This document shows positions 2,721-5,599 of a stretch of DNA of 7,547 bases, piece by piece. The notes under the pieces are model-generated. The model made no database searches. It was not told the DNA's origin and worked only from the letters and a program-made list of their open reading frames with translations. Position numbers and translations under genes: made by a program. Source of the DNA: a virus (Duplodnaviria > Heunggongvirae > Uroviricota > Caudoviricetes); the IMG/VR virus record IMGVR_UViG_2585427710_000007, positions 1-7,547 of that record. One strand, given 5' to 3'. How positions within the stretch are numbered: the stretch's first letter is position 1; the number at the start of each line of letters is the position of its first letter.

Positions 2721-2909
2721 TTATCCAGCCGGTATTTCGTTATTCAGGTACAGCGATACTTTTTTTAACGGGAGACATTCGCCAGAAATTTTTTGCTCGT
2801 CTCTTGCACGGAGGCATGATTCTTTACTGGCATAAATTCCGGTAATCACTTTCTGTGGCTCACCTGTTATCAGAAAAACCGTCATCATCAGTGTAAACGC
2901 TGAACTCAC
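2721..2909 (-). CDS. ydfD: YdfD-like small protein with a hydrophobic N-terminus (lysis-type peptide)
   Basis: GTG start at 2909 with GGAGG 6 nt upstream; GTGA start/stop overlap with dicB. The N-terminus SSAFTLMMTVFLITG is hydrophobic. Sits immediately downstream of dicB, as ydfD does in Qin. Family assignment is from memory and synteny. Confidence 0.6.
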   Translation of the reverse strand: MSSAFTLMMTVFLITGEPQKVITGIYASKESCLRARDEQKISGECLPLKKVSLYLNNEIPAG

Positions 2910-3094
2910 TGCTGCCCTCCGAAAATGCCAAGTTCAAGAAGGGCAATTCTGGAGAGTATGGAATTATCATTGAGAAGATAAGGCTCATATTTTCTCATCC
3001 TGATGGCGTCCTCAGTAAACTCCCGGTTACTGAGCAGAATACCAATATTAAAACACCCTTCAGACGTATTAACGTTTGGTAGTGACGTTTCCAT
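2906..3094 (-). CDS. dicB: Cell division inhibitor DicB homolog (62 aa)
   Basis: ATG at 3094 with GAGGA about 7 nt upstream. The product METSLPNVNTSEGCFNIGILLSNREFTEDAIRMRKYEP... matches my recollection of the DicB N-terminal half (LPNVNTSEGCF, FTEDAI). It lies about 175 nt downstream of a DicF-like element, as in Qin. Confidence 0.8.
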   Translation of the reverse strand: METSLPNVNTSEGCFNIGILLSNREFTEDAIRMRKYEPYLLNDNSILSRIALLELGIFGGQQ

Positions 3095-3271
3095 TATCGC
3101 GTCCTCAACAATGAATTTTGTGATGTGGTGCCTGGTGCCTCCAGGTGACGTTAACCAGTTAACAATTAACGCCGGATTGTTAGTTGATGTCTGTTACGCC
3201 AGTAAAAGACCGCTTGTTTTAACTGTTCCGCGTGCGCTTAGCCGCATTCACCGCATCACAAAATACACTTT

Positions 3272-3311
3272 AAAAATGGCGGATATCCATTTCCGCCGAA
3301 TCACCAGAAAA
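3272..3311 (-). ncRNA. dicF: DicF-like small RNA candidate (shortened variant) ending in an intrinsic terminator
   Basis: Minus-strand sequence UUUUCUGGUGAUUCG-GGCGGA-aauggaua-UCCGCC-AUUUUU. The 5' motif UUUCUGGUGA matches the start of K-12 DicF as I recall it. A 6-bp GC stem (3292-3297 / 3278-3283) with an 8-nt loop is followed by a U-run (3272-3277). Position upstream of dicB matches Qin. The 5' end is not defined. Confidence 0.5.
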
Positions 3312-3652
3312 GTGATAACAGAGGTTGTTGTGGCGGTGTTGTCACTCAGGCGTATGGTCAACCTGACAACCCGGTGCATTTTCTGGAGTAATGGAGGAAG
3401 CCCCAGCCATACTTACCGCCGCGCCATTTCGCGGATTGCCACAACCGGAAGCGCACGATCGAATTAAATTTAACGACGACCTGTACAGAGAGACTAACTT
3501 CGCCGTGCGCTTTCGTGTTATGCCCTGACTTTTCAGGGATATGTTCTTTCAGTAAACTGTCAGTGCCGGATTCTTATCCGTGTCCGGCGCACGACCACAC
3601 GTGACAGCGTGTTGGTCTCCATTTTTAACCCAGAACCTCTATGGAGGATAAA

Positions 3653-3955
3653 ATGCACTCTAAATCAAATCGATATTATGTTCATGTGCAGTTATTTGAA
3701 GCAACAATGGAACAGGAGAAAAAGTTCGAGACTCTGATGCCAAATTTTAAATACTCCAGGATGATTAATGAAGGTGACGTTGAATATAAATTGTTGCCAG
3801 GGGCATACGTTATTCAGTCAACGCTCAATTCGAATCAAATACTTGAACAAACCTTTTCTGTTGCTAATTCAGTTGGTGTTAATGCTCACATTTTTGTTTG
3901 CCCTTATGATGAAAGTGCAACCCTTTTGCCTTGTGCTGATTTTGGCACTTACTAA
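3653..3955 (+). CDS. Hypothetical 100-aa protein; AT-rich moron in reverse orientation within the leftward operon
   Basis: GGAGG at 3643-3647, 5 nt before the ATG at 3653 (the track start at 3641 is less likely). The ORF is visibly AT-rich compared with the flanking sequence. No transmembrane segment or recognisable motif. Product MHSKSNRYYVHVQLFEATMEQEKKFETLMPNFKYSRMINEGDVEYKLLPGAYVIQ... Confidence 0.6.
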   Translation: MHSKSNRYYVHVQLFEATMEQEKKFETLMPNFKYSRMINEGDVEYKLLPGAYVIQSTLNSNQILEQTFSVANSVGVNAHIFVCPYDESATLLPCADFGTY

Positions 3956-4259
3956 CTAAATTTAATTTATGTTCAAGTTCGGCTATTTGCATACGTAGTG
4001 CTTTAACCATTGTTTCATGATAAATCTCACTCACTCCACCTGGGTGTGGGGTGAATTTAGGTGAATAATCTTTGTTTTCAGAACTCAGCTTCTCTTCGTA
4101 CAGCTTGATAAAGGCATTACGCACATTATGGGATATATTGTCGATGGTTTCTTTTTCTACGGTACTCAGGTCAAGAGTCGCCAGTTGAGAACGAACTATA
4201 TTCGCTGCCATTTCCTGGAATGGTACTGGTAAATCTTTAAATTCCATCGTCAACCTCAT
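3879..4259 (-). CDS. Hypothetical 126-aa protein at the ydfB/ydfC position of a dicB-type operon
   Basis: The ATG at 4259..4257 overlaps the ydfA-like stop (ATGA), suggesting translational coupling. An alternative ATG at 4247 has GAGG 6-8 nt upstream. The last 25 codons or so are read antisense to the 3' end of the plus-strand gene 3653-3955, giving a His/Lys-rich tail. Confidence 0.6.
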   Translation of the reverse strand: MRLTMEFKDLPVPFQEMAANIVRSQLATLDLSTVEKETIDNISHNVRNAFIKLYEEKLSSENKDYSPKFTPHPGGVSEIYHETMVKALRMQIAELEHKLNLVSKCQNQHKAKGLHFHHKGKQKCEH

Positions 4260-4411
4260 CAGTCAGTGTTTCTGGCTAACCAGCGACGCGCGCCAGCTTC
4301 AGTTTTAAACGTTTTGCTTCTGGTATACGTCATCGCGGTAAACGTGCCGTCCAGGTTGGAGAATACTCCGCATACCAGAGATTCGTTGTTGCCAAGATTG
4401 AGCGTATCCAT
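4259..4411 (-). CDS. ydfA: YdfA/YdaF-like small protein (DUF1391-type), 50 aa
   Basis: ATG at 4411 with GAGG about 6 nt upstream. Product MDTLNLGNNESLVCGVFSNLDGTFTAMTYTRSKTFKTEAGARRWLARNTD matches my recollection of Qin YdfA. First gene of the leftward operon. Below the ORF-track length cutoff. Confidence 0.65.
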   Translation of the reverse strand: MDTLNLGNNESLVCGVFSNLDGTFTAMTYTRSKTFKTEAGARRWLARNTD

Positions 4412-4640: not shown

Positions 4641-4669
4641 GCAACAAAAACCGCCTCGAGATGAGACGG
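4641..4669 (-). terminator. Rho-independent terminator of the paaR2-paaA2-parE2-like operon
   Basis: On the minus-strand RNA, a 7-bp GC-rich stem (4663-4669 paired with 4651-4657, one G-U pair) with a 5-nt loop, followed by UUUUUGUUG (4641-4650), starting 12 nt after the parE stop. Confidence 0.6.
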
Positions 4670-4682
4670 CCCTGTGAAAGGG

Positions 4683-4970
4683 TTAGTTCTGCTTGGGGAA
4701 TTGGCGTCTGGCGTGTACTACACTCACGATCTCAATGCTTAAAGTGGCTACACGGTAAAGAATTATATAGTTAGGGTGAGCTACAATCTCACGCAAGCCA
4801 GGTACTCTGTCGCTTGGTGGGTATAAATACGGGTGTTCGGATAACGGCAGCACACACCCCCTTAATCGCTGCCATAAGCGTTCTGCCGCATCTATGTCGA
4901 AACGAGCAATATAACTAGTTATATCATCTAGGTCGGTATCTGCGCTTTCAAGCCATAACACGGGTAACAT
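4683..4970 (-). CDS. parE2: ParE-family toxin (ParE2-like) of a three-component TA system
   Basis: 95-aa ORF, MLPVLWLESADTDLDDITSYIARFDIDAAERLWQRL...HARRQFP, typical of the RelE/ParE fold and matching my recollection of E. coli O157 ParE2. Starts 3 nt after the paaA2 stop. Paralog 1 versus 2 cannot be settled by eye. Confidence 0.85.
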   Translation of the reverse strand: MLPVLWLESADTDLDDITSYIARFDIDAAERLWQRLRGCVLPLSEHPYLYPPSDRVPGLREIVAHPNYIILYRVATLSIEIVSVVHARRQFPKQN

Positions 4971-4973
4971 TTA

Positions 4974-5162
4974 CTACTTACTCCGTTCCTTGCGCATTTT
5001 AGCAAAGCGTTCTGCCATTCTGCGCTCAACCTCGTCATGGGGAATTGCTGGGCGCGGATTTGCAAGGCTCGCTGCTACTTTCGCACGCAGCCATTCGTTG
5101 TAACTGTTTTCTTGTTCAATGGTTTCGAACTCAGAAACCATTGGTGAAAGGGCCGTATTCAT
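4974..5162 (-). CDS. paaA2: PaaA2-like antitoxin (62 aa)
   Basis: Internal ATG at 5162 with GGAGG 6 nt upstream. Product MNTALSPMVSEFETIEQENSYNEWLRAKVAASLANPRPAIPHDEVERRMAERFAKMRKERSK, close to what I recall of PaaA2. The 83-aa track ORF from 5225 is rejected as an overextension into paaR. Confidence 0.85.
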   Translation of the reverse strand: MNTALSPMVSEFETIEQENSYNEWLRAKVAASLANPRPAIPHDEVERRMAERFAKMRKERSK

Positions 5163-5191
5163 GGCACACCTCCGTCTGTGTATGGTGGTCA

Positions 5192-5599
5192 TTATGCTCG
5201 ATGCCCTTTCCGGGCAGCGAGCCATCTTTCAATTGTGCGCTCCATTAACTCTTTTTTGTCTTTCATCTCCTGAAGCATTTGTCCCTGTTCTTCCTCTGGG
5301 AATGCACCAAATGTCTGAAGTAGCTCTCTTTGCTTCGGACCTATTTTCATTGTGTCAGGTACCACAATCTGTTCGTCCTCACTTGGTGGCAACATAAACC
5401 AATATGGAGGGAATCCTGTTACTTCAGAAAGTTTATCAAGATTAGCCATTGATGGGCTTGTGATGCCATGAACCCACTTTTGGACCGATTGTTGGGCAAC
5501 ACCTATTCTGCGGGCTAGTTCTGCTTGCTTAAGCCCTGTTTTTTCCAGCACCAGTTTTATCCGGTACGTGGTTATTTCAAGAGTGGTCATTCGCTTCAT
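5192..5599 (-). CDS. paaR2: PaaR2-like HTH (XRE/CI-like) transcriptional regulator, in the cI position
   Basis: 135-aa ORF with a helix-turn-helix region (LKQAELARRIGVAQQSVQKWVHG). Divergent from the Cro-like gene and first gene of the TA operon. The ATG at 5599 has no clear SD, so it may be leaderless; Met4 is an alternative start. Confidence 0.8.
   Translation of the reverse strand: MKRMTTLEITTYRIKLVLEKTGLKQAELARRIGVAQQSVQKWVHGITSPSMANLDKLSEVTGFPPYWFMLPPSEDEQIVVPDTMKIGPKQRELLQTFGAFPEEEQGQMLQEMKDKKELMERTIERWLAARKGHRA

Follow-up and report, generated by a model that had tools for sequence, protein, structure and literature searches.

A convergent gene pair in the early-left region of a Qin/DicA-type prophage is homologous, in both of its members, to ymfI/ymfJ, the convergent and itself uncharacterised pair of the e14 prophage of Escherichia coli K-12. 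The best explanation of the locus as a whole, to which we give a probability of about 85%, is that the 3′ end of a ymfJ-like gene meets an old ymfI-like partner, that the tail of the ymfJ-like protein in the overlap is a product of chance, and that the two genes would be expressed antagonistically, by analogy with known convergent pairs. The pair lies in a stretch of 7,547 nucleotides (hereafter the window) that matches a lambdoid prophage of STEC E. coli O22:H8 with 100% identity.

Two convergent genes in an early-left region

The minus strand of the window carries the prophage's early-left operon, including a DUF1482 gene and an exonuclease. Homology to K-12 Qin covers ydfA, breaks off at about 4259 and picks up again at about 3592, with the pair situated in the intervening AT-rich DNA. 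The features of the region are as follows.

5192-5599, minus strand: dicA-like repressor, early-left operon
4683-5225, minus strand: RelB/RelE (RelE/ParE-RelB) toxin-antitoxin pair, between the dicA-like repressor and the ydfA-like gene
4259..4411, minus strand: ydfA-like DUF1391 gene, directly upstream of the ymfJ-like gene in the same operon (Pfam PF07151, E 2.6e-28; PGAP annotation)
3879..4247, minus strand: ymfJ-like early-left gene, 122 aa (ORF list; PGAP CDS of 369 nt; homologues; alignment A6)
3653..3955, plus strand: ymfI-like gene, 100 aa, with a predicted ferredoxin-like (GhoS/Cas2-like) fold; un-annotated by PGAP in L001 and L002
3643..3647, plus strand: GGAGG Shine-Dalgarno sequence, 5 nt before ATG 3653 (sequence, leader alignment)
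3600-3655, plus strand: leader region, with a palindrome (ACCCTC-AG-GAGGGT) around the Shine-Dalgarno sequence
3593..4258, no strand: AT-rich DNA (36-40% GC) that K-12 Qin lacks at the corresponding site (alignments A1 and A2, composition)
3255-3297, minus strand: DicF, 17 nt shorter than in K-12 through an internal deletion
2906-3094, minus strand: dicB, early-left operon

Two of the neighbors differ from their relatives. The RelE/ParE-RelB pair is missing at the same spot in close relatives such as L002. The DicF homologue keeps its terminator hairpin (3297..3278) and is undetected by Rfam even at E ≤ 10, so DicF variants with such a deletion may escape annotation.

Both genes are shorter than the open reading frames in which they lie. 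The plus-strand frame is listed as 3641..3955, and its start is most likely ATG 3653, given the GGAGG 5 nt upstream and an agreeing PGAP call in O157:H7. The minus-strand frame is listed as 3879..4259 (126 aa from ATG 4259). The true start is almost certainly ATG 4247, 12 nt inside that frame, since a GAGG precedes it by 6 nt, every homologue begins at this position and the PGAP call agrees; the product would begin MEFKDLP and comprise 122 residues. The 126-aa frame of an earlier sequence-only reading therefore stands as a frame and gives way as a gene, while its observation that the frame ends 77 nt inside the plus-strand gene, with about 25 codons antisense to it, is borne out by the coordinates.

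Recurrence of the pair and its possible function

The plus-strand protein matches the NCBIfam family NF051477 (“YmfI family phage protein”) with 109.6 bits (E 8e-32, profile positions 2-89 of 89). As the equivalog cut-off of this model is 140 bits, the protein is a clear YmfI homologue and not a certified equivalog; a Raoultella relative (L031) scores 145.3, above the cut-off. It shares 56% identity over 91 aa with K-12 YmfI of e14 (BLASTP, E 2e-37) and also matches phrog_8894 (E 6e-34). Full-length relatives at 57, 40 and 34% identity emerged from an exhaustive HMMER search, and the motifs FYVHV, EQ..F..M, Y..S and A.IF.C are common to them and the plus-strand protein.

The minus-strand protein is a mosaic of separate modules, consisting of an N-terminal MEFKDLP helical hairpin, a linker, a YmfJ-type C-terminal helix and a non-conserved tail, and its AF2 model has helices at residues 8-23, 32-57 and 74-107. 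The parts map to the DNA as follows.

4089..4247, minus strand: N-terminal domain, residues 1-53; PHROGs 6937, 1363, 2151 and 9419 match residues 1 to ~52
3945..4064, minus strand: YmfJ-type C-module, residues 62-101 (SPKFTPHPGGVSEIYHETMVKALRMQIAELEHKLNLVSKC), conserved across genera (A6, dN/dS, pLDDT)
3882..3944, minus strand: lineage-specific read-through tail, residues 102-122 (QNQHKAKGLHFHHKGKQKCEH); stop codon at 3879-3881

The N-terminal hairpin is common to several PHROGs and is joined elsewhere to many different C-terminal modules. The C-module has nine invariant residues (T66, G71, V72, Y76, H77, T79, V81, K82 and L84; alignment A6), a dN/dS of 0.31-0.38 against L007/L011 and a pLDDT of ~92 at residues 81-90. 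Its residues 65-95 are 47% identical to the C-terminus of K-12 YmfJ (BLASTP, E 4e-8); the similarity is confined to this module and the N-terminal halves are unrelated, so the likeness to YmfJ does not run the whole length of the protein. The same module is also found in proteins of 108-124 aa from Raoultella, Klebsiella, Scandinavium and metagenomic contigs. Neither the ymfJ-like nor the ymfI-like protein has a Pfam match, and PADLOC assigns neither of them, nor the sister cassettes described below, to a defence system. As a separate observation, the N-terminal half of YmfJ (NLKHVIALLLEDAKRLQQIEPNAGTEARI; L036 5777-6085, e14) corresponds to the C-terminal part of 133-aa “type C” MEFKDLP proteins (P0082/P0105), and small early-left proteins shuffle short helical modules among themselves.

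Eight lineages, from Escherichia, Raoultella, Scandinavium and metagenomes, carry the pair, and the length of the overlap ranges between 14 and 90 nt.

K-12 e14 ymfI (+)/ymfJ (-): 63 nt, adjoining the repressor
L024-27: 14 nt
L038: 42 nt
L032: 50 nt
L031 (Raoultella): 63 nt
O157:H7 allele L033: 14 nt
Window: 77 nt
L007/L011/L035: 90 nt

The layout, in which the 3′ end overlaps a ymfI homologue downstream of the repressor, is the same in the window, e14, L024, L031, L032 and L038. Among 5426 complete E. coli genomes the plus-strand gene occurs in 65, and the C-module is present in all 65. A species-level genome scan returned only three loci, which keeps the co-occurrence statistics small. The co-occurrence proposed as a check in the sequence-only reading holds for the 65 genomes and has exceptions elsewhere: L028/L029 carry a YmfI-like gene of 40% identity without a partner, and the partner in L030 looks disrupted. 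Nucleotide identity between the window and L007 is 88-91% over the plus-strand gene plus the C-module and only 65% over the N-terminal domain, so that the former two make up the inherited unit, and a recombination joint lies inside the minus-strand gene near 4086. The convergent 3′ overlap is a family trait, present in every lineage of what is an old, co-inherited pair, and the suggestion that the minus-strand gene is an unrelated gene travelling with its convergent neighbor is supported.

The likeness to e14 extends to the arrangement: in both prophages the genes are convergent, overlap at their 3′ ends and occupy the early-left side beside a CI-like repressor. There are also differences. The window protein begins with the MEFKDLP helical hairpin, whereas YmfJ has another N-terminal part, and the window prophage is of the Qin/DicA type (ydfA, DicF, dicB). 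Moreover, in e14 the extended tail is on YmfI (113 aa), whereas in the window it is on the ymfJ-like protein; in the e14/Raoultella clade the YmfI extension is antisense to the conserved YmfJ helix, the reverse of the situation in the window.

With regard to function, the predicted structure of the ymfI-like protein has a GhoS/Cas2-like ferredoxin fold, and this makes RNA binding or cleavage the leading guess from modelling. The closest point of comparison, GhoS (YjdK; PDB 2llz), is a type V antitoxin endoribonuclease with 12% identity and no profile-level similarity to the ymfI-like protein. The GhoS comparison gave no Pfam match and no match in a PDB profile search, hhalign of the YmfI family against GhoS returned a probability of 0.35%, and a BFVD search of viral folds gave no significant match. 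The catalytic Arg28 of GhoS cannot be mapped onto the ymfI-like protein. Unlike GhoS, the ymfI-like gene has no co-directional ghoT-like toxin gene downstream and runs straight into its convergent neighbor. A hydrophobic 63-aa frame does lie within the gene in an alternative frame (3768-3959, plus strand), and P0124 is a frameshifted product that enters it. This frame is an artefact of T-rich DNA, as a stop breaks it in L007 and it is absent in distant homologues, and it was rejected as a GhoT analogue because it is not conserved.

It is conceivable, though on balance improbable, that the two proteins form a functional pair, in which the ymfI-like protein would be an RNase of the GhoS/Cas2 kind, serving as a toxin, an antitoxin or a factor for exclusion, and the YmfJ-type helix its specific partner or neutraliser, so that the prophage could switch the activity off on induction. 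The joint travel of C-module and ymfI-like gene while the N-terminal domain is swapped would fit such a pairing, as would its retention down to ~35-50% protein identity in several genera, and GhoS variants can turn into toxins (PMC4010927). Adjacency with overlapping ends would, however, be enough to hold the genes together, and solitary YmfI-like genes occur. Furthermore, the C-module is the same in sister cassettes B and B′ while their convergent genes differ, and both the sequence-level link to GhoS and a GhoT-like toxin gene are missing in the searches above. The pair is better explained as two old neighbors whose 3′ ends overlap.

The overlap, its tail and the annotation of the plus-strand gene

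The overlap is shared by the end of each protein, and the length of the minus-strand protein is set at one polymorphic spot within it.

3879..3955, no strand: convergent overlap, 77 nt; plus-strand residues 76-100, minus-strand residues 98-122 (V98-H122, 122-aa numbering)
3939..3944, no strand: polymorphic spot setting the tail; T-run of 4 vs 3 (1-nt indel in L007/L011/L035) and G3944A (alignments)

This DNA encodes a core strand of the ymfI-like protein (residues 77-84 in the AF2 model) as well as the invariant residues A78, F81, C83 and L92 (alignments A3/A7), which argues that the overlap is constrained by the plus-strand gene. Rfam, at gathering thresholds and at E ≤ 10, found nothing relevant within the overlap. 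The overlap has also left its mark on annotation. In the long-tail records L001 (NZ_CP023165.1) and L002, where it measures 77 nt, PGAP calls the minus-strand gene only, whereas in the O157:H7 record L033, where it measures 14 nt, both genes are annotated. The ymfI-like gene is thus probably omitted on account of the 77-nt overlap, and it is probably missing from the annotation of most carriers, given that 51 of the 65 have the long-tail allele.

Taken at face value, the PGAP annotation would mean that the minus-strand gene alone is real and that the plus-strand frame arose by chance in AT-rich DNA. This is a highly improbable account that is already contradicted. In its favor, L001 and L002 have no PGAP CDS at the frame, tblastn of the plus-strand protein against phage records returned no match, and its dN/dS between two E. 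coli alleles is near 1 (0.77-0.81, on only 24 substitutions and too weak to decide coding). It is the full-length distant homologues at 34-57% identity with their invariant motifs, and not dN/dS, that establish the frame as a real gene; curated NCBIfam and PHROG families match its product, its Shine-Dalgarno sequence is strong, the gene tolerates an in-frame 3-nt indel, the product has a confident AF2 model, and PGAP does annotate the gene where the overlap is short. Separately, one genome (L034, NZ_CP027449.1) has lost 1 nt just past the start of the ymfI-like gene, at a place corresponding to about 3668 in the window, and with it the start; either this copy is a pseudogene or the deletion is an error of sequencing.

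With the plus-strand gene accepted as real, the remaining question concerns the tail. Homology of the minus-strand protein runs out at about residues 99-101, where the overlap begins (A6), and the last 21 codons are absent from distant homologues. The tail has a pLDDT below 50 at residues 108-122 (AF2) and is predicted to be disordered. Ten of the 14 A6 sequences, all ten of them outside the three E. coli alleles, stop close to the positions that correspond to residues 102-104. The first of these alleles is the window type, with its 21-residue His/Lys tail, which is found in 51 genomes at ≥99% identity. The second, seen in the O157:H7 record L033, has G3944A, which turns a minus-strand CAA into TAA and thereby gives a 101-aa protein and a 14-nt overlap; in the plus-strand protein it does no more than replace Gly98, in the disordered end, by Ser. 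Thirteen genomes fall in the 95-99% identity band, and most of them seem to carry this allele, as they have the same 97.2% identity and doubled annotation. The tail is also truncated in P0002. In the third allele (P0003/L007), a 1-nt indel in the T-run at 3939-3942 shifts the minus-strand tail into another frame (…QKGCTFIIRANKNVSIYTN) and leaves the plus-strand frame upstream of the indel unchanged.

The length of the tail is no more than chance would provide. When synonymous codons of the plus-strand gene were resampled 5000 times, the samples in which codon 102 was not a stop gave a median minus-strand frame of 122 aa, and 67% of them reached at least the observed length. The existence of both genes is beyond chance, and the overlap length is not. 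The sequence-only reading had taken the tail for something other than a native C-terminus, and in this it holds, since homology ends where the overlap begins and the tail varies between alleles. Its length is due to stop-codon placement, through the point change at 3944 and the indel near 3940, and not to an insertion. Judged from these comparisons, the tail is a by-product of where the stop falls, neither native C-terminus nor insertion scar; it is under no selection and is probably functionless.

The same reading had proposed that the overlap is a junction, created when a plus-strand moron inserted into a longer, intact ancestral gene of the ydfB/ydfC type. The tail is indeed non-conserved, and the AT-rich segment is absent in Qin, where YdfB and YdfC are encoded at about this place, after ydfA and before DicF. 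This part of the placement can be kept. The idea of replacement falls, for ydfB and ydfC lie elsewhere upstream of the homologous gene: the order in L007/L008 is ydfA, ydfB, ydfC, a 125-aa homologue of the ymfJ-like protein, a convergent 102-aa gene and dicB. L011/L012 carry ydfB only and the window neither, so the ymfJ-like gene is a separate unit normally downstream of ydfC, and the window has lost, or never had, ydfB/ydfC. The alignment check named in the same reading found no BLASTP similarity of the minus-strand protein to YdfB and a best YdfC E value of 1.2, and alignment with K-12 Qin found no DNA homology of the minus-strand gene to ydfB/ydfC. With ydfB, ydfC and the homologous pair present together at the same loci, with DNA homology to the sister allele crossing 3955 unbroken at ~90%, and with a like convergent overlap in e14 and other genera, both the unsplit-gene and the insertion-junction proposals are refuted and retain next to no probability.

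Proposed antagonistic transcription and a possible swap site

The early-left operon reads leftward from the dicA-type repressor region through the ydfA-like and ymfJ-like genes to DicF and dicB. In the STEC lineage, the ymfJ-like frame lacks a stop at codon 102 and gains 21 codons up to the next chance stop, and the resulting basic, disordered tail is the antisense of the conserved core strand of the ymfI-like protein. If the K-12 pair is a guide, expression of the ymfI-like gene would be independent, and the ymfJ-like gene would come on at induction, together with early lytic genes. Convergent transcription, fully overlapping, would make expression of the two genes mutually antagonistic, an “excludon” as at Rac sieB/ydaF.

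Published work on K-12 offers some support for the analogy. Both pairs, ymfI-ymfJ and sieB-ydaF, appear among the convergent excludons derived from RNA-seq (PMC12288877); this transcript overlap is reported only for the K-12 homologues, and in the window it is the genes that overlap. In the SOS response, ymfJ is induced late with CI-controlled e14 genes and its protein has been detected, while ymfI is only weakly induced (PMC11002266), and the gene list of the YmfT iModulon includes ymfJ and not ymfI (PMC12132413). In the window, a terminator search found no intrinsic terminator between the two genes, and the leftward operon must cross the whole ymfI-like gene antisense to reach DicF and dicB. 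Mutually antagonistic convergent transcription of an independently expressed ymfI-like gene and the induced operon is most likely, as far as the analogy reaches. A promoter scan upstream of the plus-strand gene gave no convincing sigma-70 promoter. Terminator-like plus-strand hairpins bracket the region at 3523-3538 and 4668-4684. The first lies just upstream of the ymfI-like leader and the second past the antisense of the ymfJ-like and ydfA-like genes, so a plus-strand transcript could run antisense for ~700 nt.

The Rac system resembles the window in its early-left slot, between ydfA/ydaF-type genes and a kil/dicB gene, and in the reverse orientation of sieB, which converges on the DUF1391 gene ydaF with a 3′ overlap of 4 nt. 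The proteins differ: SieB has 162 aa and is described as acting in superinfection exclusion, and the ymfI-like protein is modelled as a soluble ferredoxin-like domain. The latter has no similarity to SieB and no Pfam or PADLOC match, and the genomic slot is all that the two have in common.

The slot may have a wider use. Each of the other C-terminal types found on the MEFKDLP protein comes with a small convergent gene of its own that overlaps it at the 3′ end (73, 91, 64 and 77 aa; overlaps of 11-41 nt). Types B, B′, C and D (L004, L016, L019, L021) have one and the same leader as far as the ATG of the convergent gene (…CCAACCCTCAGGAGGGTGAAATG), and in K-12 Qin the leader is present and the cassette absent. 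The pattern is suggestive of a swap site with a fixed platform for expression. Coupling within the cassettes is not strict, as the B and B′ C-modules pair with different convergent genes. It is tempting, if decidedly speculative and doubtful, to regard the interval from the early-left genes to DicF/dicB in DicA-type lambdoid prophages as a swap site for two-part cassettes. One part would be a C-terminal module on a protein with a constant N-terminal MEFKDLP domain, and the other a small gene in convergent orientation, supplied with a constant leader and Shine-Dalgarno sequence. If true, the ymfI/ymfJ-type cassette would be one such unit, with the GhoS-like, RNA-targeting protein as an exclusion or toxin factor and the YmfJ-type helix as a phage-encoded off-switch.

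For annotation, the present work corrects a gap for the ymfI-like gene and ties two K-12 y-genes, ymfI and ymfJ, to a wider family, and YmfI gains a testable, fold-based lead (GhoS/Cas2-like) from the predicted structure. The locus also provides a natural example of an overlap made by stop-codon drift, with the tail found full, frameshifted and truncated, and from these three alleles it can be told which strand is under selection. The current picture of prophage biology would change only if the pair turned out to act as a functional module.
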